Shown one piece after another: positions 3,840 to 64,000 of a DNA stretch of 64,000 nucleotides (its first letter is position 1; the number at the start of each line of letters is the position of its first letter). The position numbers were made by a program, and so were the translations under genes. A model generated the notes under the pieces. That model was not told where the DNA came from. It made no database searches and saw only the letters and a list, made by a program, of their open reading frames with translations. The stretch is taken from the IMG/VR virus record IMGVR_UViG_3300032293_001706, positions 126,553 to 190,552 of that record; one strand, given 5' to 3'. This DNA is from a virus.

Positions 3840-5074
3840 TGGCGTCTAGATTAATAATACAAAATATAACAGGAACAACACCTTATTATGTGTATGTATG
3901 TGATGTGTTTGAAACATTATGTGAATATCTCGGAGTGTTAACAGGAACAACTTTGGGTAGAACTTTCACTCTATCTTCATTATATGACACAGCACCGATA
4001 ATTAGAGTTAAATTAATCGATAATAATGGTTGCGAAGTAAAAAAAGATATTTCGTGTGATGAAAATTGTACTTTCCAATTGGAAATATACAGCGTAGATG
4101 ATAATATATGTTTGGCTTCTCCAACACCTACACCAACGGTTACTCCAACAATCACACCATCAATAACACCAACACCATCTGTAACACCAACAGTTACTCC
4201 AACAACATCTATAACACCTACACCAACGGTTACTCCAACAATCACACCGACACCATCACCTACTTGTCCAGCAGCGGCATCGATAGTTAGTGATGGGTTG
4301 GTTGCATATTTGGACCCTGCAATTTGTAATGGTTTTACACAAGCGACAAACACATTAGAAGATGCCACGGGTAATTTTAGTGGGGATAATTTTGACTTGA
4401 GGGCTTATGTAAGACCAACAACTAGTACATCAACATTATATACTGGCACCTCAATTTATAGTAACATTGGTGGGGGTTCGCTAACTATTAGTGCATCAAC
4501 AGGGTATTTTTACGAACAAGTGAATCCATATGGATACAGTGCATATTCATTCTCAATATGGTTTTACCCATTTAATAATATTACAAGTGCAACATCTGCA
4601 AATAATCTATTAGAACTTAGAACGTATCCTAATGCTAGTGGAATTCAATACTTAGGTCTTGGTAATGTAACAGGACCTTCAGTGTTAAACGGTGAAATTG
4701 TTACAATATTGGGGGATTATCTTCAACCAGGAAATACATATCCTAGAACTGCAGTAATGTCATCAGCATTTACCCAATTTAGTGCAAATACTTGGTATAA
4801 CGTAACATGTAATTGGAATAGTGGTTCATCAAGATATGATATTTATATCAACAATATACTTAGAACGGTTGTTAATTCAAGTGGGGGGAATGTTCCTGTA
4901 ATAAACGCTAACTTATTAGTTGTTGGTGCGGTATGGGGTGATGGTCAAATTTCAACCGCCGCAAGAAATATTTTTACGGGTAACATCGGTGAAATGCATT
5001 TCTATAATAAAGCTCTAACAGGTGCTGAGTTAACTCAAAATTACGACGCATTAAAAACAAGATACGGTTATTAA
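3839..5074 (+). CDS. Fibre/appendage protein: Cys-rich N-module, Pro/Thr linker, LamG/ConA-like lectin domain
   Basis: PTPTVTPT linker; C-terminal SFSIWF...WYNVT...YIN...FTGNIGEMHFYNKALTGAELTQNY pattern typical of LamG-like domains. Confidence 0.65.
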   Translation: MASRLIIQNITGTTPYYVYVCDVFETLCEYLGVLTGTTLGRTFTLSSLYDTAPIIRVKLIDNNGCEVKKDISCDENCTFQLEIYSVDDNICLASPTPTPTVTPTITPSITPTPSVTPTVTPTTSITPTPTVTPTITPTPSPTCPAAASIVSDGLVAYLDPAICNGFTQATNTLEDATGNFSGDNFDLRAYVRPTTSTSTLYTGTSIYSNIGGGSLTISASTGYFYEQVNPYGYSAYSFSIWFYPFNNITSATSANNLLELRTYPNASGIQYLGLGNVTGPSVLNGEIVTILGDYLQPGNTYPRTAVMSSAFTQFSANTWYNVTCNWNSGSSRYDIYINNILRTVVNSSGGNVPVINANLLVVGAVWGDGQISTAARNIFTGNIGEMHFYNKALTGAELTQNYDALKTRYGY

Positions 5075-8494: not shown

Positions 8495-10117
8495 ATGAGT
8501 TTTCCATATAATAATCCGCAAACCGCAACAAGACAAAATTCACAATTATCCGTAAATAGACAATCTAATTTCGGAGTTACGTTTTCTGTTTCAAATACAG
8601 GTGGTTATATGGAAGTTGCAAATCTATCTGATTTGGAATGGACATTTTCAGGTCAAACGGGAAATATAACAGGGTCAACAATTCCAATTCAATTTTTTAA
8701 AGGTTCAGGATTTATTCCTGATGTAATAACATTAAATTCTGATTATTTTTCTTCAGGTAGAAGAAGAATTGGAATGTTGGTTTATGTGTATGAAACCGAC
8801 AAAATATATCAATATAATATTGATAATTATGAATCACTTTGGAACGCAGCTACAGGGGCGACTAACACAGTAATATTTACTGATTATGGTGCAAACGTTA
8901 GGTCGACAACACAACAAGGTATTGATTTAATAACTGCGTGGACGGGTTCAACAATTGAAGGACAAAATGGTATTACAAGAACAAACGCAAATTGGGTAAT
9001 ATTCAACGGTTCATATCCTGCAATTACAGGTGGAACGTATTCGGCAAATACAATTGTATTAACAACAAATACAGGTACTGAAATTCAAATCACGGGAATT
9101 ACGTCAGGTCAGGGAGCGGGGATTACAGGTGGAACTTTTGATTATAATGCAAGAAATCTTTACCTCTACGATGTAACAGGTGGAACAATTACAATATCAG
9201 GACTTACTGACACTTACATTACAGGTGGAACATATAACACTGGTACACAAAGTTTAACGTTAAGAGATAACTATGGTGGAACTGTGGTAATAACAGGTTT
9301 TACGACAAGTTCAGGTACGTCGGGTACTTCAGGAAGTAGTGGTTCTAGTGGAAGTTCAGGAACATCAGGCTCTTCGGGAAGTAGTGGTACTTCAGGAAGT
9401 AGTGGTATTAGCGGAAGTTCAGGAACATCAGGCTCTTCGGGAAGTAGTGGTACTTCAGGAAGTTCAGGCTCTTCAGGAAGTAGCGGAAGTTCAGGAACAT
9501 CGGGTATTTCAGGTGTGGATGGAACTAATGGTTCTAGTGGAAGTTCAGGAACATCAGGTTCTTCAGGTAGTAGTGGGGTTAGTGGAAGTTCAGGAACATC
9601 AGGTTCTTCAGGTAGTAGTGGGGTTAGTGGAAGTTCAGGAACATCAGGTTCTTCAGGAACATCAGGTTCTTCAGGAAGTAGTGGTACTTCAGGAAGTAGT
9701 GGGGTTAGTGGAAGTTCAGGAACATCAGGTTCTTCAGGAAAATCAGTAACAGGAGGAACCTTTAATTCACAAACAGTAACATTAACTTTAAATAATAATG
9801 ATAATAGTAGTGTAGTTATTTCTGGTGTTACAGGTAACTATATTACAGGTGGTACTTATTTTAGCGCAACAACAACCTTAGAATTATATGATTCTACAGG
9901 TGGAACTATTTCAGTAACAGGCTTTACCGCTGGTTCAGGTGGAGGAGGTTCAGGAACATCAGGTACTTCAGGAAGTAGTGGTATTAGCGGAAGTTCAGGA
10001 ACATCAGGTACTTCAGGAAGTAGTGGAACAAGTAGTGTAAACATAACATACGGGACTGCCGCTCCTGATAATGGAACGGGAAATGATGGAGATGTGTATT
10101 TACAATATACAGCATAA
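8495..10117 (+). CDS. Fibre protein with collagen-like Gly-X-Ser triplet stalks and repeated TGGT(Y/F) modules
   Basis: Long (GSS/GTS/GVS/GIS)n runs; about seven [IV]TGGT repeats; C-terminal GTAAPDNGTGNDGDVYLQY fibre motif. Confidence 0.65.
   Translation: MSFPYNNPQTATRQNSQLSVNRQSNFGVTFSVSNTGGYMEVANLSDLEWTFSGQTGNITGSTIPIQFFKGSGFIPDVITLNSDYFSSGRRRIGMLVYVYETDKIYQYNIDNYESLWNAATGATNTVIFTDYGANVRSTTQQGIDLITAWTGSTIEGQNGITRTNANWVIFNGSYPAITGGTYSANTIVLTTNTGTEIQITGITSGQGAGITGGTFDYNARNLYLYDVTGGTITISGLTDTYITGGTYNTGTQSLTLRDNYGGTVVITGFTTSSGTSGTSGSSGSSGSSGTSGSSGSSGTSGSSGISGSSGTSGSSGSSGTSGSSGSSGSSGSSGTSGISGVDGTNGSSGSSGTSGSSGSSGVSGSSGTSGSSGSSGVSGSSGTSGSSGTSGSSGSSGTSGSSGVSGSSGTSGSSGKSVTGGTFNSQTVTLTLNNNDNSSVVISGVTGNYITGGTYFSATTTLELYDSTGGTISVTGFTAGSGGGGSGTSGTSGSSGISGSSGTSGTSGSSGTSSVNITYGTAAPDNGTGNDGDVYLQYTA
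9309..9740 (+). repeat. 9-nt-period coding tandem repeat (Gly-X-Ser) with higher-order 45-nt duplications
   Basis: Units ggaagttca/ggaacatca/ggttcttca/ggtagtagt; 45-nt block duplicated at 9539-9583 and 9584-9628; a second short run at about 9948-10035. Confidence 0.9.
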
Positions 10118-21447: not shown

Positions 21448-23670
21448 ATGGCGTGTTTAAGCGGTGTTACTAGCGGTTCAGGATGGTCTTATGTGGACTG
21501 TGTTGGAAATTTTCAATCAGGGGATACTATTGGGTTGTCAGTTTGTTATGACCCAAATCCTATATCGGGGTATTTACCTATTAACATAACGCAATCAGAA
21601 GTAGAGTGTACTCCAACTAATTATCAATTTTCTGCTTGTTGTAATGGGGCATTATATAAAACAACCTCATTTTCGACTTTCTCAGCAGGAACTTCTTATT
21701 ACATTGAGAGTGATTTATTTACAGGTTGTACAACTGTTGTAACATATTCAGGTGCGGGAACAAGTATAAACTTAACATCAACAGGAGTATCATATGCAAA
21801 TTGTTCTTTATGTGTTGCAGAAACACCTTGTCCACCTGCAAGTGACTTCCAATTCAGGTCATGTTGTGACCCAACCGTTACATTTATTATAAATGATTAT
21901 GTTGCGGAATTAACATCGGGTGAAGTTTATTATATTATAAGTACAGGTTTCACAGGTTGTGCCGAAGTAATACCATATACAGGTTTAGGTGAAAGATATG
22001 ATGCAACTTCATTAACAGGTCCTTATGATGATTGTGCATCTTGTATGGATGATTATCCTTGTTATTGTGTTTGTAAAAATTATTTATTAAATAATACACA
22101 AGAAGTTGATACCTATGTTTCATTTTTTGATTGTTATGGTAATGAACTTACAATTACACTACCGGCAGGAAATAGTCTTGAAATTTGTGCTTGTGAAGAT
22201 ACCGTATTAGTTCCACCTGGAGTTATTTTAACCGATTTAGGCGATTGTACTTTTGAAACTCAAACACCTACACCTACACCAACAGTAACACCAACACCAA
22301 CTGCAACACCAACTTATAGCGCTTGTAGTGAACAGTTTTGTTTAAGAACTGAATATTCACAATTTAGTAATTATGACGGACAATATACAAGTGGTGGGAC
22401 ATATAACTCAAGACCATATTATACAGGTTCAACAACAGGAACAGTATATTATGATGGAACACAATGGTGTTTATCAAATACTTTAGGTGGTAGTTGTGTT
22501 TTATATGGTAAGACACCTTGTTTTTCTAACTGTCCTGACATTGATGAAGAAATTTGGACCGTAGGAGTTTGTCCGACACCAACACCTACTCCAACACCAA
22601 ATATTTGTGTAACAGTAGACTTTAATGCGTTATTTGATTGCGATTATACACCTGATGTAACGGTAACGTGTGAAACACCAACACCTACTCCAAGTGTAAC
22701 ACCCACAATAAATCCTTGTATTGGAGTTGATGCCGATATTGATATCATTAATACCTCACCTACTCCAACACCTACTCCAACAGTAACACCCACACCTTCA
22801 TTAGTTAGAAGTGTTAATGTGTCAGGGGCAACCACATACACATTAGTTGATACAGAATTTATGTGTAATTTCGTTAGAAAAATACAAGATTGTGATACAA
22901 GTGAAATACATTACGTTTCACAAGGTATAAGAACTATTAATAACACAATAGTATCAACAGGACAAACCTTTAGTGCTTATGTTGACGGTGTTTATAAATG
23001 TTTCACATATTTAGGAATAGTATATGACCAAAGTGCTACTCTAACACTAAATTCTATTACCAATTCATTTACAGCTTGTACAGCTTGTACAAACTCATTA
23101 ACACCAACTCCGACACCAACAGCAACTGTAACACCTACAATAAGTGTTACACCATCAGTTACACCATCAGTTACACCATCAGTTACTCCATCAGTTACTC
23201 CAACATTAACTCCGACATTAACTCCGACACCGACTAAGACAGTAACACCAACACCTTCAATAAATTCTTCAGCAACACCTACTCCAACACCGACTAAGAC
23301 ACCAACTCCAACACCGACTAACACACCGACTAACACGATAACACCAACACCAACGAGAACACCAACAAAAACACCGACACCTACACCATCAGTGACATCA
23401 ACAGTCACTCCGACACCGACATTAACGCCAACACCAACATCTACTTTAACTCCAACACCATCACAACAACCAATTAATTATTTAGTTCAAAATTGTACTG
23501 AAAGTAACATTGCGTATGTAAGTAATTTAGGTGGATTAACAATTAATATTGGTGATAAAGTTAAACTTTCAGGTACAGGATATGAAGGTTGTTGGGAAGT
23601 AATTAACTATACATTAAGTGTTCCATCAACAACAATAATCTCGGTTCACGCAACATGTGATTGTAACTAA
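21448..23670 (+). CDS. Cys-rich structural protein with long Pro/Thr mucin-like stalks
   Basis: Many Cys pairs; PTPTPTVTPT repeats at about 22260-22320, 22575-22800 and 23100-23460. Confidence 0.6.
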   Translation: MACLSGVTSGSGWSYVDCVGNFQSGDTIGLSVCYDPNPISGYLPINITQSEVECTPTNYQFSACCNGALYKTTSFSTFSAGTSYYIESDLFTGCTTVVTYSGAGTSINLTSTGVSYANCSLCVAETPCPPASDFQFRSCCDPTVTFIINDYVAELTSGEVYYIISTGFTGCAEVIPYTGLGERYDATSLTGPYDDCASCMDDYPCYCVCKNYLLNNTQEVDTYVSFFDCYGNELTITLPAGNSLEICACEDTVLVPPGVILTDLGDCTFETQTPTPTPTVTPTPTATPTYSACSEQFCLRTEYSQFSNYDGQYTSGGTYNSRPYYTGSTTGTVYYDGTQWCLSNTLGGSCVLYGKTPCFSNCPDIDEEIWTVGVCPTPTPTPTPNICVTVDFNALFDCDYTPDVTVTCETPTPTPSVTPTINPCIGVDADIDIINTSPTPTPTPTVTPTPSLVRSVNVSGATTYTLVDTEFMCNFVRKIQDCDTSEIHYVSQGIRTINNTIVSTGQTFSAYVDGVYKCFTYLGIVYDQSATLTLNSITNSFTACTACTNSLTPTPTPTATVTPTISVTPSVTPSVTPSVTPSVTPTLTPTLTPTPTKTVTPTPSINSSATPTPTPTKTPTPTPTNTPTNTITPTPTRTPTKTPTPTPSVTSTVTPTPTLTPTPTSTLTPTPSQQPINYLVQNCTESNIAYVSNLGGLTINIGDKVKLSGTGYEGCWEVINYTLSVPSTTIISVHATCDCN

Positions 23671-28393: not shown

Positions 28394-28425
28394 AAAGAGG
28401 ACCAAAAGTCCTCTTTTTCTTTTTT
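28394..28425 (+). terminator. Intrinsic terminator
   Basis: AAAGAGGAC-CAAAA-GTCCTCTTT followed by a T tract. Confidence 0.8.
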
Positions 28426-28429
28426 GTTA

Positions 28430-28436
28430 TATTTAT
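28430..28436 (+). promoter_or_regulatory. Recurrent TATTTAT(A) motif, candidate phage late promoter (representative copy)
   Basis: Same motif 0-30 nt upstream of starts: plus strand at 5091, 8483, 10126, 11899, 21434, 25688, 28430, 29878, 41008, 46515, 51249, 52325, 57779; minus strand at 17589, 39658, 57530, 57739. Confidence 0.6.
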
Positions 28437-28454
28437 CATTAACAAGACCTTTAA

Positions 28455-29654
28455 ATGGAAGAAGAAATTATATTTGAATTGTTAGATGATTTTACATCTG
28501 GTGGGAAGTTATATTATGATGATGAATATAAGTCAATATGGATGATAAATCCAGATACAAAACAATGGATATTTGAATTCAAAAAAACAGGAACTTTATG
28601 GTATTCTTATCCGGTTTTTACCAAAATTTTTAAATACGTTTCGATGGATTATCCTGATTTTAACCCGTATATTAAAAAGTGGGTTGAAAGAATCCTTCAA
28701 AAGGAGGCTAAAAACACCCAATCAATGGGGGGTCAGGAGACATTTTGGGTTGAAAGAATCCTTCAAAAGGAGGTTAAAAACACCATTGAACTTAATGGCT
28801 CAGCCGCCCCAACGGTTGAAAGAATCCTTCAGCAAGATAATAATTTAGACTTAAATGAAAACATTAATGAAAGTGAAGAATCCCCATTAGTTGATGAAGA
28901 AATTATATTTGAATTATTAGATGATTTTACATCTGATGGGAAGCTATATTATGATGATAAAACGGAATCCATATGGATGATAAATCCAGATACAAAAGAA
29001 TGGATATTTGAATTCGAAAAATCAGGAGATTTATGGTATCATTATAAAGTTTTTGAAAGTATTTTTAAATACATTTCGATGGAATATCCTGATTTTGAAC
29101 CATACATAACAAAGTGGGCTGAAAGAATCCTCCAAAAGGAGGTTAAAGACACCGCAAACTCGTATTGGGTGCTGCCGATGGCCGCTGAAAGAATCCTTCA
29201 AAAGGAGATTAAAGACACCATTTTTGTGCAACATCTGCAAAACTCTGGAGTTGAAAGAATCCTTCAACAAGATAATAATTTAGACTTAAATGAAAACATT
29301 AATGATGGCGAAGAACCATCATCAGTTGATGAAGAAATTATATTTGAGTTGTTAGATGATTTTACTAATGATTATGATAAGTATCAATCTTATAATGGAG
29401 ATACTTTTCTTATTAATCCTAATAAGAAAGATTGGTTAATAGAAATAGATGAAGAAAACTATTTATGGTATAACAAAGATATATTTGTAAAAATTTTCAA
29501 ATACGTTTCGATGGAATACCCTGATTTTGAACCATATATAACAAAGTGGGTTGAAAAAAAAATTAACATTAAAATTAAAGAAACTTATGATATTTTCTGG
29601 GGTAGAGGGGGTAAAATAATAGATGTAATTACAAATGGATTTAAAGAAACATAA
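28455..29654 (+). CDS. Three tandem copies of a ~75-aa domain (EEEIIFELLDDF...PDFxPYIxKW), each followed by in-frame repeat/spacer units
   Basis: Internal triplication visible in the translation; modules joined by QDNNLDLNENIN linkers; TATTTAT motif at 28430-28436. Confidence 0.85.
   Translation: MEEEIIFELLDDFTSGGKLYYDDEYKSIWMINPDTKQWIFEFKKTGTLWYSYPVFTKIFKYVSMDYPDFNPYIKKWVERILQKEAKNTQSMGGQETFWVERILQKEVKNTIELNGSAAPTVERILQQDNNLDLNENINESEESPLVDEEIIFELLDDFTSDGKLYYDDKTESIWMINPDTKEWIFEFEKSGDLWYHYKVFESIFKYISMEYPDFEPYITKWAERILQKEVKDTANSYWVLPMAAERILQKEIKDTIFVQHLQNSGVERILQQDNNLDLNENINDGEEPSSVDEEIIFELLDDFTNDYDKYQSYNGDTFLINPNKKDWLIEIDEENYLWYNKDIFVKIFKYVSMEYPDFEPYITKWVEKKINIKIKETYDIFWGRGGKIIDVITNGFKET
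28683..28831. CRISPR. CRISPR-like mini-array A1, in frame within CDS (2 full and 1 partial repeat, 2 spacers)
   Basis: Repeats 28683-718 and 28749-784 (GTTGAAAGAATCCTTCAAAAGGAGG[C/T]TAAAAACACC), partial 28815-831; both spacers exactly 30 nt. Confidence 0.7.
29118..29267. CRISPR. CRISPR-like mini-array A2, in frame within CDS (2 full and 1 partial repeat, 2 spacers)
   Basis: Repeats 29118-153 and 29184-219, partial 29250-267; both spacers 30 nt and unrelated to the A1 spacers. Confidence 0.7.
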
Positions 29655-29665
29655 TGAGAAAAAAA

Positions 29666-29697
29666 GTTGGTTATGTTAAAAAATTGGCCTATATTTG
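29666..29697 (+). promoter_or_regulatory. Bacteroidota sigmaA-type promoter
   Basis: GTTG (29666-69), 20 nt, TATATTTG (29690-97). Confidence 0.65.
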
Positions 29698-29703
29698 TAA
29701 TAG

Positions 29704-29873
29704 GAAATCGATGAAAAAAGTCCAAAGGTTTTGAGGACATAAAAATAAAAAACCTGATTGGAAAGGTTGAAGGTAACCCTCCCAATGAACCCGAAAGAAA
29801 ATCTTCTTAGCAAGTCTACCGCGAACTAGAGTTAGACAAAAAAAGAGGGCCAAAAGTCCTCTTTTTCTTTTTT
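29704..29873 (+). ncRNA. Candidate structured small RNA
   Basis: Lies between a host-type promoter and a terminator; no ORF longer than about 14 codons from an ATG; hairpins at 29720-38, 29758-85 and 29814-37. Confidence 0.35.
29840..29873 (+). terminator. Intrinsic terminator (near-copy of 28394-28425)
   Basis: AAAAAGAGGGC-CAAAA-GTCCTCTTTTT plus T tract; one G-U pair on the plus strand. Confidence 0.8.
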
Positions 29874-29902
29874 GTTATATTTATAAGTAATAAGACCTTT
29901 AA

Positions 29903-30976
29903 ATGGAAGAAGAAATTATATTTGAGTTATTAGATGATTTTACATCTGATGGAAAGTTATATTATGATGATGAATATGACTCCATATGGATGATAAATCC
30001 AAAAACAAAAAAATGGATATTTGAATTCGAAAAATCAGGAAATTTATGGTATTCTTATTCAATTTTTAACAAAATTTTTAAATACGTATCGATGGAATTC
30101 CCTGATTTTGAACCATACATAACAAAGTGGGCTGAAAGAATCCTCCAAAAAGAGGTTAAAGACACCTTTCATGGTCTTCGAAACTTTCCCGCTCCAGTTG
30201 AAAGAATCCTTCAAAAAGAGGTTAAAGACACCCGGATGGACAGCTATACATCAACAGCGGTGGTTGAAAGAATCCTTCAAAAAGAGGTTAAAGACACCTC
30301 ATCCAGTTCGCTTTTCTTAGGGAAGGTGGTTGAAAGAATCCTTCAAAAAGAGGTTAAAGACACCGAACATTTTGAAGAGCGTTTCATTGAAGTGGTTGAA
30401 AGAATCCTTCAAAAAGATAATAGTTTGGATTTAAATGAAAGTTCACCGATTAAATTAATCCAATTATTTAAAGAAGTTTTAATTGAAGGTCAAATAGATG
30501 GAACATTAGTTAATAAAACTTATGATGGTTATAATGTTAAATTTATTTTATCTAAACATGCCGATGAAAGAAGAAATAGAGTTGATAATTATTCAGAAAT
30601 AACATATGAAGAACTAATATCCGCAATTGAGGAAGCAATTCCTAAGATTGTTGATAAAGCGTTTAAAACACATAAACGAAATATTGTAGGACCTGTTAAC
30701 AATGGAATGATATATATTAGAGATAGTAAGACAGGACAATTAAATAAAAAAGACGCTCAAGAGTTTTTCATCTACAAAAAAGAATCAGAATTACAAATTA
30801 AATGTAAGGTTTTAAATTTTGATAAAAATAAGGGTTATATTGAAATTATAATAAAAACTTTAATGAAAAGTCGTACAGATAAATTAAATATGAACGACCC
30901 GAAAAGAAACACCCTGTATTTAAATATTTTTGAAAACATTAATAACTTTGAGAATTATTTTATAATAGAAATATAA
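29903..30976 (+). CDS. ~75-aa domain, in-frame array and C-terminal domain with SxHAxER motif (possible RNase/toxin fold)
   Basis: N-terminus near-identical to module 2 of 28455; C-terminal LSKHADERRNR; TATTTAT motif at 29878-84. Confidence 0.8.
   Translation: MEEEIIFELLDDFTSDGKLYYDDEYDSIWMINPKTKKWIFEFEKSGNLWYSYSIFNKIFKYVSMEFPDFEPYITKWAERILQKEVKDTFHGLRNFPAPVERILQKEVKDTRMDSYTSTAVVERILQKEVKDTSSSSLFLGKVVERILQKEVKDTEHFEERFIEVVERILQKDNSLDLNESSPIKLIQLFKEVLIEGQIDGTLVNKTYDGYNVKFILSKHADERRNRVDNYSEITYEELISAIEEAIPKIVDKAFKTHKRNIVGPVNNGMIYIRDSKTGQLNKKDAQEFFIYKKESELQIKCKVLNFDKNKGYIEIIIKTLMKSRTDKLNMNDPKRNTLYLNIFENINNFENYFIIEI
30131..30417. CRISPR. CRISPR-like array A3, in frame within CDS (4 full and 1 partial repeat, 4 spacers)
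   Basis: Repeats start at 30131, 30197, 30263 and 30329 (GTTGAAAGAATCCTTCAAAAAGAGGTTAAAGACACC), partial 30395-417; strict 66-nt period. Confidence 0.75.
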
Positions 30977-44404: not shown

Positions 44405-45763
44405 ATGACACCACCGAAAAACCCACAAATCTTTAGTTTGTGGGATGTAAGGTGATTTTAATTTAACATAAATTATTTTTTTTTCAAAAAATGAAACTTT
44501 TTGTAATTTAATATATATTTATACTATATAAGGTAATTTAGTATAAATGTTAAAATCATATAAATATAAACTTAATCCGAATGAGGAGCAAATTGTTTTG
44601 TTAAATAAACATTTTGGTTCTATTAGGTTTGCGTATAATTATTTTCTTAATGAAAGAAAAAAAGAATATGAAACAAATAAGCAAAGTTTAAATTATTATG
44701 ATAATGCAAAATCATTAACCGAACTAAAAAAACAAGAAGAATACTCTTGGTTAAACGAAATTAATTCACAATCATTACAAGTATCATTAAAACATTTGGA
44801 TGATGCATATAACGGATTTTTTAAAAAAAGAACAGGTTTTCCAAAATTTAAATCAAAACACACAAAAAATAGTTTTAAGGTTCCACAGTTTGTTAAATTG
44901 GAAAAAGGCAAGTTAAAAATACCAAAATTTAATAAGGCAATTGATGTTATTTTACATAGAAGTTTTAATGGCAAAATTAAATCTTGTACAATATCAAAAA
45001 CACCAACAAATGAATATTTTGTTTCCATCCTTGTGGAAACCAAACATAAGAAATTGGACAAAACCGGAAAATCAATCGGGATTGATTTGGGGCTGAAAGA
45101 TTTTCTTACAACCAGCGATGGTTATAAATATAAAAATAATCGTTATACAAAAACTTATCAAACATTACTTAAAAAAGCTCAACAACATTTGAGTAGAAAA
45201 ACAAGAGGTTCAAACAAATATCAAAAACAAAAACTGAAAGTTGCAAAACTACACAAGAAGATAACCAATTCTCGTTTAGATAATTTGCACAAAGTATCCA
45301 CAGATTTGATTCGAAAATACGATTTAATTGTATTAGAAGACTTAAATATTAAAGGAATAATTAAAAATCATAAACTTTCAAAACATATTGCTGATGCCAG
45401 TTGGTCAAAGTTCATAGAACTTTTAAAATATAAAGCGGAATGGAATGAAAAAGAAATTGTTAGAATTGATAGATTTTTTCCTTCCAGTAAAACTTGCAAT
45501 TGTTGTGGATATATAAATCAAAATCTAAAATTAAATATGAGAGAATGGACTTGTCCATCTTGTAATACAAAATTAGATAGAGATTTAAATGCTAGCCAAA
45601 ACATCCTTAATGAAGGATATAAAATAATATCGGACGGGACATCCGATAACAGAAGTCGAGGCGAAATAAGACCAACTTTAGTTGGCACAACCGATGAAAC
45701 TTTTAAAGTTCTGAATATTTATAATTCAGAAGCCCAACCATCTTTAGTGGTTGGGTAGTTCAC
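44405..45763 (+). mobile_element. IS200/IS605-family (IS1341-like, tnpB-only) element
   Basis: Left hairpin CCCACAAA-TCTTTAG-TTTGTGGG (44422-44), right hairpin CCCAACCA-TCTTTAG-TGGTTGGG (45733-55), ending TAGTTCAC; preceded by TTTAT; no tnpA in the window. Confidence 0.8.
44547..45758 (+). CDS. tnpB: TnpB RNA-guided endonuclease
   Basis: HTH (KSYKYKLNP), RuvC-I GIDLGL, RuvC-II LEDLN, Zn ribbon CNCC...CPSC, RuvC-III DRDLNA; catalytic D-E-D intact. Confidence 0.95.
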   Translation: MLKSYKYKLNPNEEQIVLLNKHFGSIRFAYNYFLNERKKEYETNKQSLNYYDNAKSLTELKKQEEYSWLNEINSQSLQVSLKHLDDAYNGFFKKRTGFPKFKSKHTKNSFKVPQFVKLEKGKLKIPKFNKAIDVILHRSFNGKIKSCTISKTPTNEYFVSILVETKHKKLDKTGKSIGIDLGLKDFLTTSDGYKYKNNRYTKTYQTLLKKAQQHLSRKTRGSNKYQKQKLKVAKLHKKITNSRLDNLHKVSTDLIRKYDLIVLEDLNIKGIIKNHKLSKHIADASWSKFIELLKYKAEWNEKEIVRIDRFFPSSKTCNCCGYINQNLKLNMREWTCPSCNTKLDRDLNASQNILNEGYKIISDGTSDNRSRGEIRPTLVGTTDETFKVLNIYNSEAQPSLVVG

Positions 45764-61376: not shown

Positions 61377-62570
61377 ATGAAAGTTTTTTTAGAATATATT
61401 TGGTTGGATGGTTATAAACCAGAACCAAATCTTAGAAGTAAGGTAAAAGTAATTGACCATAATCAATATAATATTAAATTAGATGATTGTCCCGAATGGT
61501 CATTTGATGGTTCATCGACAAAACAAGCGGAAGGACATTTTTCAGATTGCATTTTAAAACCTGTTAAAATTTATCCAAACCCATTAAACACTAGCAAAAA
61601 ACCATCATTTTTTGTTTTTTGTGAAGTTATGAATCCAGACGGAACACCGCATAGTTCAAATACAAGGGCATCAATTAGGTCAACGGTTCCATTATCAGAC
61701 TCATTTGAAAAAATAACACCGAGCAGTTCAAACGAAGGAGAATTAATCAGTGAAGAAGATGAAGATTTATGGTTTGGGTTTGAACAGGAATATACAATTA
61801 TTAAAGATGGTAGACCACTTGGTTTTCCGATTAATGGGTATCCTGAACCGCAAGGAAAATATTATTGTGGTGTTGGAAACGGACAGGTAAATGGACGTGA
61901 ATTTGTTCAAAAACATATGGAATATTGTATTGGTGCAGGAATTGACATTACAGGAACAAATGCGGAAGTTCTTTTGGGACAATGGGAATACCAAGTTTTT
62001 TCAAAAGGTAAATTGAAAGCTGGTGACGACCTTTGGATTTCTAGATATATTCTACAACAAATGTCCGAAGATTATGGTTTTACCATTGAGTTCCATCCAA
62101 AACCTGTAAGCGGAGACTGGAATGGCTCTGGTCTACACTGCAATTTTTCAAATGGGAAAATGAGGGATATTGGTGGGGAAGAATACTTCAAAAGTATATT
62201 TTCTACTTTTGATTCAAGACATATAGAACACATTGAAAATTATGGTTCAGATAATAACCTAAGATTGACTGGAAAGCATGAAACACAATCAATTGACAAG
62301 TTTAGTTGGGGAATTTCTGACAGAGGAGCATCCATAAGAGTTCCTTTAAGTACCTCAAAAGAATGGAAAGGATATGTCGAAGATAGAAGGCCAGCATCAA
62401 ATGCAGACCCTTATAGAATTATTAAGGTGATTTCCGAATCTCTAAAACTTTCAGAAACAACCAATAATGTTAGACATATGATGTATGCTAATGTTAATCT
62501 TGATGACATTACAAACAAATATGGTATGATTTCAAATGAAGAACTTTTAAAAGATTATATTAATGACTAA
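61377..62570 (+). CDS. glnII: Glutamine synthetase type II
   Basis: EYIWLDG, WSFDGSST, GFEQEY, NAEV..GQWEYQ, HPKP..GDWNGSG.H.N, RLTG.HET, DRGASIRVP, EDRRPASN. Confidence 0.93.
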   Translation: MKVFLEYIWLDGYKPEPNLRSKVKVIDHNQYNIKLDDCPEWSFDGSSTKQAEGHFSDCILKPVKIYPNPLNTSKKPSFFVFCEVMNPDGTPHSSNTRASIRSTVPLSDSFEKITPSSSNEGELISEEDEDLWFGFEQEYTIIKDGRPLGFPINGYPEPQGKYYCGVGNGQVNGREFVQKHMEYCIGAGIDITGTNAEVLLGQWEYQVFSKGKLKAGDDLWISRYILQQMSEDYGFTIEFHPKPVSGDWNGSGLHCNFSNGKMRDIGGEEYFKSIFSTFDSRHIEHIENYGSDNNLRLTGKHETQSIDKFSWGISDRGASIRVPLSTSKEWKGYVEDRRPASNADPYRIIKVISESLKLSETTNNVRHMMYANVNLDDITNKYGMISNEELLKDYIND

Positions 62571-62733
62571 TTCAGAGAATACAGAAAAGTGTATCAATTG
62601 TGGAATAGACACCGAAATACCAATAAGACAAAATATCGATTTAAGATATGGATATGTTGAAGGTGCGGGTCAATTATGTTCAGAGTGTTTTAAAAAAATC
62701 TACAAAAAAGTAACGGAACAAAATAATGATTAA
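62563..62733 (+). CDS. 56-aa Zn-ribbon protein
   Basis: CINCG...YVEGAGQLCSEC, translated by hand. Confidence 0.6.
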   Translation: MTNSENTEKCINCGIDTEIPIRQNIDLRYGYVEGAGQLCSECFKKIYKKVTEQNND

Positions 62734-63217
62734 TTCTAAGACAAAAAGAATAATTTTGGTTGGAAAAGCGGCTTCAGGTAAAGATTTTTTAAGAAAAAAG
62801 TTTGAGAGTCGTGGTTTCACATTTGGTGTTAGTTACACAACAAGACCAAAAAGAAAGGGTGAAGAGGAAGGAAAAGATTATTATTTCTTAACTGAAGAAG
62901 AATCAAATAAAATGATTGAAGATGGGTTATTTTATGAATGTATATACTTTAATGGATGGTTATATGGTACAACCAAAGAACAGTTCTATCGTGACGATTT
63001 ATTCATTATGACACCAAAAGGGATATCTAAAATCAAACCTGAAGATAGAGAGAGTTCTTTTATTATTTATACTGATATAGATAGACAAACACGAATGAAT
63101 CGTTTATCAGAAAGAGAAATGCCTGGAGATAGTTTATTAAGAAGAATAGACGCTGATGAAATTGATTTTATGGATTTTAATGATTATGATATGAGAATCA
63201 CAAATCCTAATTTTTAA
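62726..63217 (+). CDS. gmk: Guanylate kinase-like protein
   Basis: GKAASGK P-loop, SYTTRPKR.GE..G.DYYF, YGT. Confidence 0.85.
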   Translation: MINSKTKRIILVGKAASGKDFLRKKFESRGFTFGVSYTTRPKRKGEEEGKDYYFLTEEESNKMIEDGLFYECIYFNGWLYGTTKEQFYRDDLFIMTPKGISKIKPEDRESSFIIYTDIDRQTRMNRLSEREMPGDSLLRRIDADEIDFMDFNDYDMRITNPNF

Positions 63218-63218
63218 A

Positions 63219-64000
63219 ATGGAAAAACAAATAATATTAGAATTTCTTAATGACTTCACAAAAGGTTATGATATATATCATCATAATGGTTCCATGTGGT
63301 TTATTTTAACCGAAGATAGAAAGTGGTTAATAGAATTAGATAAAAAAGGAACTTTGTGGTATAACTATCATTTTTTTTCGGGTATTTTTAGGTATGTAGC
63401 AATGGAATACCCTGATTTTACACCATATATAACAAAGTGGGTTGAAGACACCATTCAAAATGGGGTTAAGAACACCTACTTGCCGTTCAGGTTTTCCACG
63501 AAGCGAGTTGAAGACACCATTCAAAATGGGGTTAAGAACACCCACCAAACCAGTGGGTGCCGTGAAATTGGAGTTGAAGACACCATTCAAAATGGGGTTA
63601 AGAACACCGTTTGTGGTGAGCGATTCGCAGCAGGGAATGTTGAAGACACCATTCAAAATGGGGTTAAGAACACCAGAAATAAAAACTACGAGCCTGAAGG
63701 TTACGTTGAAGACACCATTCAAAATGGGGTTAAGAACACCTATTCAGACGTGATATATCACGTCTCCTACGTTGAAGACACCATTCAAAATGGGGTTAAG
63801 AACACCTATTTTGACTTCGAAAAACCCCTGCAGGAAGTTGAAGACACCATTCAAAATGGGGTTAAGAACACCCATTGCGTAGCGTCGTCCGTAGGTGATG
63901 GCGTTGAAGACACCATTCAAAATGGGGTTAAGAACACCAGTGCGTTTAAATTTGCAATAATGAACGCAGTTGAAGACACCATTCAAAATGGGGTTAAGAA
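63219..64000 (+). CDS. ~74-aa conserved domain fused in frame to the CRISPR-like array (3' truncated; absent from ORF track)
   Basis: ATG 63219, MEKQIILEFLNDF...MEYPDFTPYITKW, then (VEDTIQNGVKNT + 10 variable aa)n with no stop to the window end. Confidence 0.85.
   Translation, partial: MEKQIILEFLNDFTKGYDIYHHNGSMWFILTEDRKWLIELDKKGTLWYNYHFFSGIFRYVAMEYPDFTPYITKWVEDTIQNGVKNTYLPFRFSTKRVEDTIQNGVKNTHQTSGCREIGVEDTIQNGVKNTVCGERFAAGNVEDTIQNGVKNTRNKNYEPEGYVEDTIQNGVKNTYSDVIYHVSYVEDTIQNGVKNTYFDFEKPLQEVEDTIQNGVKNTHCVASSVGDGVEDTIQNGVKNTSAFKFAIMNAVEDTIQNGVK
63441..64000. CRISPR. CRISPR-like array B: at least 9 identical 36-nt repeats and 8 unique 30-nt spacers
   Basis: GTTGAAGACACCATTCAAAATGGGGTTAAGAACACC at 63441, 63507, 63573, 63639, 63705, 63771, 63837, 63903 and 63969 (cut by the window edge). 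Confidence 0.85.

Follow-up and report, generated by a model that had tools for sequence, protein, structure and literature searches.

DNA from the chromosome of a bacterial host has very probably been captured, 30 nt at a time, into translated CRISPR-like arrays in the genome of a jumbo phage of a lake. Since the spacers of these arrays come from a chromosome and are kept in the frame of a protein, the captured DNA appears to write new peptides of 10 residues beside a small phage domain.

The window, by which I mean the whole stretch of 64,000 nt analyzed here, is the terminal part of a virus record of 190,552 bp and 30% GC (IMG/VR IMGVR_UViG_3300032293_001706) that is 63% complete. Related near-complete records measure about 270–320 kb, and the size of the phage is ~300 kb. 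Its capsid protein is T4-like, with best matches (at 42–46%) to a Microcystis phage record, an uncultured phage and Flavobacterium phages. The arrays considered here belong to a locus of two genes, and a paralogous gene lies at the end of the window. The features are as follows.

28423–28454, plus strand: TATTTAT late-promoter-like motif, upstream of gene 1
28455–29654, plus strand: gene 1 (399 aa), three domain+array modules with linkers between them that carry I/L-x-E motifs
28455–28682, plus strand: domain copy 1, ending at an invariant Trp; predicted helix, four strands and two helices, with the fold completed by the first repeat
28683–28831, plus strand: array A, repeats at 28683 and 28749, spacers 28719–28748 and 28785–28814, then a 17-nt partial repeat
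28832–28889, plus strand: acidic linker with LNE/INE motifs, disordered in the structural model; candidate prohead-protease sites
28890–29117, plus strand: domain copy 2
29118–29267, plus strand: array B, repeats at 29118 and 29184, spacers 29154–29183 and 29220–29249, then an 18-nt partial repeat
29325–29549, plus strand: domain copy 3, the most diverged of the four
29550–29654, plus strand: decayed array (36-nt repeat remnant, 30-nt spacer, 36-nt repeat remnant, stop)
29903–30976, plus strand: gene 2 (357 aa), consisting of domain, array C, linker and an unrelated C-terminal region of 181 aa (no Pfam match)
29903–30130, plus strand: domain copy 4
30131–30417, plus strand: array C, repeats at 30131, 30197, 30263 and 30329, four 30-nt spacers, then a 23-nt partial repeat
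30167–30196, plus strand: spacer C1, an exact (30/30) antisense copy of part of a chromosomal DUF255/YyaL-type gene of genome G1114, encoding a new peptide
63219–64000, plus strand: paralogous gene with an in-frame array of eight spacers, cut by the end of the contig

The geometry is that of a CRISPR array, with unique spacers of set length between near-identical repeats, and here an earlier note on this DNA holds up. The four copies of the domain start at 28455, 28890, 29325 and 29903. Between the 36-nt repeats lie 2 + 2 + 4 spacers, each of exactly 30 nt, with a G+C content of 115/240 (48%), and the arrays end in partial repeats of the lengths given above (17, 18 and 23 nt), each whole array lying in one open frame. 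Pairwise identity among the spacers is 4–11/30, the level of chance. The account of the domain copies needs amending: three do have intact arrays, and the fourth (29325) is not without one, being followed by the decayed unit of 36 + 30 + 36 nt and then a stop. The note had also proposed that spacers turn over much faster than the coding DNA beside them, and this is borne out, the domain copies being 80–90% identical (pS 0.14–0.30) and the spacers unrelated. Spacers related to one another as diverged duplicates were looked for at the two-gene locus and not seen; one pair elsewhere in the genome, identical at 20/30, may be an old duplicate. An assembly artefact is unlikely, given the same sequence in other assemblies and hundreds of independent relatives. 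The whole locus is 100% identical in assemblies L203 and L206, as is the end of array C in L204, all possibly from one sample.

Over the whole genome the domain occurs 11 times, at four loci, and the spacers number 25. At G000 C1:18458–20611 (L001), three domain+array modules are fused to a nucleotidyltransferase-like C-terminal region (a weak match to PF01909), and the orthologue of this gene has two modules and other spacers. Three further domain copies with decaying arrays lie at G000 C1:40054–41976 (L002, minus strand), two genes from the major capsid gene.

The spacers were searched first against a sample of 400 Bacteroidia genomes and then against genomes order by order. In the sample, matches coincided with two spacers, 30167–30196 (in a DUF255 gene) and 63477–63506 (in a Glu/Leu/Phe/Val dehydrogenase gene). 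The search by order gave exact matches in one cluster of Bacteroidia, G1113–G1120 (2.2–3.4 Mb). Thirteen of the 25 spacers match chromosomal genes of this cluster (nine at 30/30, three at 29/30, one at 27/30), and the matches coincide with the ends of the spacers. As in a CRISPR array, then, the spacers come from outside DNA, and the cluster is likely to be the host of the phage. When each site is assigned to its longest ORF, four spacers are sense and in phase, five sense and out of phase, and four antisense. The genes hit include what I take to be panB, relA/spoT, accA and nuoE. The gene at 63219 has seven of its eight spacers matched at 29–30/30. At the two-gene locus two of eight are traced, C1 and the array B spacer 29220–29249 (27/30, to G1114), both of them exact or near-exact bacterial chromosomal sequence. 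No clear PAM consensus stands beside the 13 protospacers.

Searches elsewhere returned little. INPHARED phages gave neither a homologue of the domain nor a spacer match, and plasmids gave no spacer match. Two spacers had no exact match in IMG/VR, and none of the fresh spacers of the family (see below) matches DNA of related phages. No convincing spacer match was found in 151 Polynucleobacter genomes, in a 400-genome sample that was probably Flavobacteriales, or in an order of 34 genomes. Random untemplated synthesis, an idea prompted by the spacer GC content near 50%, is excluded by the natural dinucleotide signature and the exact protospacers, and targeted hypermutation of a single template is rejected for most spacers.

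The arrays grow from one end, that of the domain. Both the identity of neighboring repeats and the share of spacers that are 30 nt long drop with distance from the domain, and the share of spacers also present in a divergent locus rises from 0.30 in the first unit to 0.76 in units beyond the tenth. The orthologue of the 63219 gene in L032 lies by a neighboring gene that is 97.6% identical, yet only the last, most distal spacer is common to the two arrays. All proximal repeats of the L032 array carry one new repeat variant, as expected if each insertion copies the first repeat. An orthologue of another locus, P0004, has no spacer in common with its counterpart, but it contains a tandem duplicate of one spacer, and another is present in two of its arrays, which implies that recombination is at work too. 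Polar growth and a degenerate trailer are further features that these arrays share with CRISPR arrays.

The domain does occupy the growing end of the array, where a leader would be, as had been pointed out, but two suggestions built on that position found no support. One was that the domain-coding DNA serves as a coding leader. In the last codons ahead of the repeat, third positions are conserved at just 43–56% outside the Trp codon, so a coding leader of fixed sequence is not supported, and no conserved DNA leader was detected. The other would have the domain act upon its own array, and no match to an integrase or nucleic-acid-binding fold stood out, the end of the domain being itself encoded by the first repeat. 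It is the repeat that seems to be constrained as DNA at the growing end, since proximal repeats retain genome-rare codons (GGG in 142/165 and ACC in 127/155, against 0.11 and 0.13) that are lost distally. The codons directly before the repeat are under no comparable constraint, Trp excepted.

The best reading of the array, judging from sequence, is as a translated reading frame that is filtered by translation. A frame-blind scan of the family for fresh spacers returned 106, every one of them (106/106) 30 nt long, with stops at 0/1060 in-frame codons versus 61/954 and 62/954 in the other frames. Because 73.5% of host-like 30-mers are stop-free, the eight stop-free spacers of the two-gene locus prove little (P about 0.085, not significant). 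For all 25 spacers of the genome (25/25) the chance of being stop-free in host-like DNA is 5e-4, and for 106/106 it is about 7e-15. Old spacers common to different phages change length in triplets and have pN 0.079 and pS 0.222 (pN/pS about 0.36), values from clusters defined at >=70% identity, a cut-off that biases both figures; by sequence, the old units are under selection. In three relatives the distal part is interrupted by a frameshift or a stop. A CRISPR array has a non-coding leader and is itself non-coding, its transcript being processed to crRNA, and here both the leader position and the array form an ORF under selection. The earlier interpretation, supported in part, overlooked this selection on the reading frame, and also that the spacers come from the likely host.

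Sister arrays in the same phage clade (L040, L076, L017, L178, L155 and L167), located behind other paralogous domains or between genes, have spacers of 28–31 nt, of which 6/16 are 30 nt, and stops are present in them. This points to an imprecise writer and to selection as the source of the exact 30 nt. The arrays behind other paralogous phage domains (L040:1400–1620, L076:1060–1300, L017:2372–2500 and L178:147–1130) have repeats in two different codon registers, and the orthologues L040 and L076 have no common spacer. The intergenic ones (L155:8230–8500 and L167:19210–19450) are VI-B-like mini-arrays in related phages, their first and last repeats partial, with no cas gene seen nearby.

The domain itself (~88 aa) is uncharacterised. 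It belongs to no family in Pfam or PHROGs, and a search of Rfam gave nothing. In the confident domain that AlphaFold predicts over residues 1–90 (pLDDT 92–97), the end of the last helix is made by the first repeat, as is a strand that continues into the first spacer. The model gives the second repeat as a helix of lower confidence and the distal units as disordered. Stand-alone paralogue-like proteins have a similar motif at their C-terminal end, so the repeat would be the domain's own C-terminus and each insertion would swap the peptide beside the fold. In structure searches nothing stood out in PDB (best Z 4.3–4.5), Foldseek gave no match, ESM Atlas no usable one, and the BFVD matches were to uncharacterised phage proteins only. 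A profile search found 1096 longer proteins among 8000 candidates, as well as 449 clusters at 50% identity, and nearly all members share one plan: the domain, the invariant Trp and units of 12 + 10 residues. Distant paralogue families (L150, L125, L159, L208, L209) have in-frame arrays of the same 12 + 10-residue geometry with other repeat peptides. The family loci fetched are virus or metagenome contigs, and among 185,579 prokaryote genomes there was one family match, on a MAG contig of 3.4 kb.

In T4, the prohead protease cuts internal head proteins at I/L-x-E. By analogy with its substrates, the TATTTAT motif, the LNE/INE linkers and the similar N-terminal leaders of about 15 relatives suggest packaging in the head and ejection, and the product is probably late, head-packaged and cut at the I/L-x-E linkers. 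TATTTAT stands upstream of 51/168 ORFs versus about 10 expected, a fivefold enrichment, and it precedes both gene 1 and gene 2, the 300-nt block that contains the motif at 28423–28454 being duplicated upstream of gene 2 with 89% identity. The intergenic stretch 29655–29902 has a Bacteroidota-type promoter motif and hairpins (no match in Rfam), and its 3' part is duplicated upstream of 28455. The likeness to T4-type internal head proteins (PMC5694885) lies in the late-type promoter motif, the linkers and the leaders; no sequence or fold match goes with it, packaging here being read from the motifs and the promoter.

What writes the arrays is more probably to be sought outside the phage. No Cas1 was found in 34 related phage records, eight of them at least 90% complete (the phage's own being 63% complete), the single weak match being to an unrelated phage protein, and no gene is a constant neighbor of the arrays, the commonest family occurring near 33/80 loci. 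By that search no cas1 gene shares the replicon. The array is CRISPR-like in acquisition, and it falls outside CRISPR membership in this respect and in being coding. Compared with published VI-B/VI-F repeats (from the supplement of PMC13187072), the repeat agrees at 19–24/36 on the minus strand and 16–22/36 on the plus strand, versus about 9.5 for shuffles, and the sister arrays resemble those repeats in the sense direction. A 36-nt repeat resembling Cas13b repeats, with a 30-nt spacer, fits type VI-B; the hairpin does not, the GUUG/CAAC terminal stem being mismatched at one end and the folding z-scores (−1.1 to 0.3) no better than those of shuffles. Five MAGs of the host cluster yielded no Cas13b effector and no 36-nt array, in a search without a positive control. 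In one MAG of the eight, G1118, cas9, a II-C cas1 and cas2 accompany an array whose spacers are 30 nt long (L330:349–7167, where a 362-aa ORF of no assigned family lies between cas1 and cas2 and the contig end cuts the array). Cas1 was not found in the best-matching MAG, and the MAGs may be incomplete. The G1118 repeat is 47 nt versus 36 nt in the phage, and the two are similar at their ends only; a Cas1–Cas2 with ~30-nt spacers is found in the presumed host, a host-like repeat in the phage is not. In Flavobacterium columnare, a II-C Cas1–Cas2 fills in trans a 36-bp VI-B array that has no cas1; its spacers are 28–32 bp, roughly half originating in the bacterium's own DNA, and a ruler is believed to determine how long the repeat is (PMC8092290). 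A II-C Cas1–Cas2 of the G1118 type would be the likeliest writer here.

The process I envisage runs as follows. In a small phage domain, the final 12 codons would serve also as a 36-bp repeat of CRISPR type. On infection, an integrase that captures spacers (most likely type II-C Cas1–Cas2 of the host, working in trans) would act on the first repeat, inserting there a piece of host chromosome of ~30 bp and duplicating the repeat. An insert of 30 bp would add exactly 22 codons, putting a new 10-residue peptide beside the domain and displacing older ones distally; since the array has to be translated, inserts of other lengths or with stops would be lost. Units would be deleted, copied and shuffled by recombination among repeats and paralogues, and some old peptides would then be retained by purifying selection. 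The late product would probably be packaged in the head, cut at its I/L-x-E linkers and delivered by ejection to the next host, where the peptides would offer a variable surface for interactions. This full model, with a host Cas1–Cas2 as writer and adaptive peptides, I favor by a little. It counts against it that sister paralogues tolerate frame-breaking inserts, implying capture also where no peptide cassette results. A broader reading is that the phage has a diversity-generating system in which CRISPR adaptation writes a de novo library of 10-residue peptides, sampling the host genome in six frames, onto an injected folded scaffold, with selection keeping the useful ones; to this I give somewhat less than even credence.

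Alternatively, the peptides may have no function at all. Host adaptation machinery would write into repeat-like gene ends and the result would be a tolerated by-product or a decoy, perhaps useful as a sponge, inserts surviving only if the downstream protein is not cut off. The acceptance by sister genes of 28–31-nt inserts with stops fits this, as do the further domains downstream in genes 1 and 2, the disorder of distal units in the models and the identity of new spacers with unmutated host DNA. I nevertheless consider it unlikely: ORFs of the 63219 type end directly after the last repeat, yet their spacers are stop-free; old spacer peptides, common to divergent phages, show the low pN/pS noted above; and repeats retain integration-type nucleotides against codon bias, though this last observation is partly self-selecting.

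The other two alternatives concern the writer and the product. A phage integrase unrecognisable as Cas1 might insert host DNA freed by chromosome degradation, which would sit well with the mismatch between 47-nt and 36-nt repeats, the lack of a clear PAM, the rarity of Cas1 in host MAGs, the several unrelated repeat sequences and two codon registers across paralogue families, and the very fast turnover. But near-complete relatives have no Cas1-like gene, the loci have no constant neighbor, and repeat ends, repeat length and the spread of spacer lengths match type II-C/VI-B, and I regard such an enzyme as quite improbable. Less probable still is that the open frame is secondary and that antisense transcripts yield Cas13b-like crRNAs, by which host genes would be silenced or a host effector sequestered. 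Phages are known to carry crRNA-like anti-defence arrays (10.1101/2024.10.29.618823), the minus-strand repeat does resemble VI-B repeats and the spacers do match host genes. However, the terminal stem is broken and folds poorly, the spacers come from both strands of their targets, and the exact 30-nt length, the avoidance of stops and the synonymous drift of old units would be left unexplained.

I return to capture into a translated array and to the systems it can be compared with. In diversity-generating retroelements (DGRs), adenines are mutated as a template repeat is reverse-transcribed. DGRs and the arrays alike are phage systems by which a protein is varied in its C-terminal part; unlike DGRs, the arrays add whole foreign 30-mers, the spacers being unrelated host fragments rather than a variable region that differs from its template at adenines only. 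The F. columnare VI-B array (PMC8092290) is similar in its 36-bp repeat with a GTTG start, spacers centered on 30 bp, polar growth, lack of its own cas1/cas2 and many self-derived spacers, and its repeat matches the phage repeat on the minus strand at 21–24/36 for the tested variants and 19/36 for the variant at 29118. The phage array differs from it in lying within a translated ORF, with coding DNA at the leader position, a broken terminal stem, no effector and no PAM seen, and in that only in-frame units persist. The compact cas-less arrays of huge phages (PMC7162821) are also short, carried by phages of >200 kb, without genes for integration or interference, and in some cases with host-chromosome spacers, but they are read as non-coding sources of guides, whereas the arrays described here are a reading frame subject to selection at the protein level, in many paralogous genes. 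The Cracr/Racr crRNA-like anti-CRISPR RNAs of phages (10.1101/2024.10.29.618823) share the phage-borne repeat–spacer units resembling host repeats; they act as RNA on cas or toxin promoters, whereas the targets traced here are ordinary genes in either orientation.

A full-text literature search aimed at translated CRISPR arrays found no description of them. CRISPR arrays are known as non-coding memories, and here what is captured would be expressed as protein, with translation as the filter; proteins would vary by a route other than DGRs, phase variation or slippage. The arrays offer a datable record of new peptides made from out-of-frame or antisense host DNA and later subject to purifying selection, so that the birth of peptides de novo becomes directly measurable. 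The spacers also indicate which bacteria uncultured jumbo phages are likely to infect. They bear, besides, on how 36-bp arrays are filled in Bacteroidota with 47-bp II-C repeats, a question left by PMC8092290.

Other parts of the window deserve brief mention. Directly upstream of the array gene at 63219, positions 61377–63217 hold phage genes for glutamine synthetase and guanylate kinase, and the contigs that carry the top GlnA relatives are all short or of phage size. Pro/Thr-rich and Ser/Gly-rich low-complexity coding repeats at 4100–4270, 9300–10070 and 22250–23470 lie in probable structural genes. An ORF of 403 aa at 44547–45758 resembles a TnpB/IS605-type gene, and an IS605 OrfB, likewise of 403 aa, occurs in a relative at another place in the region.
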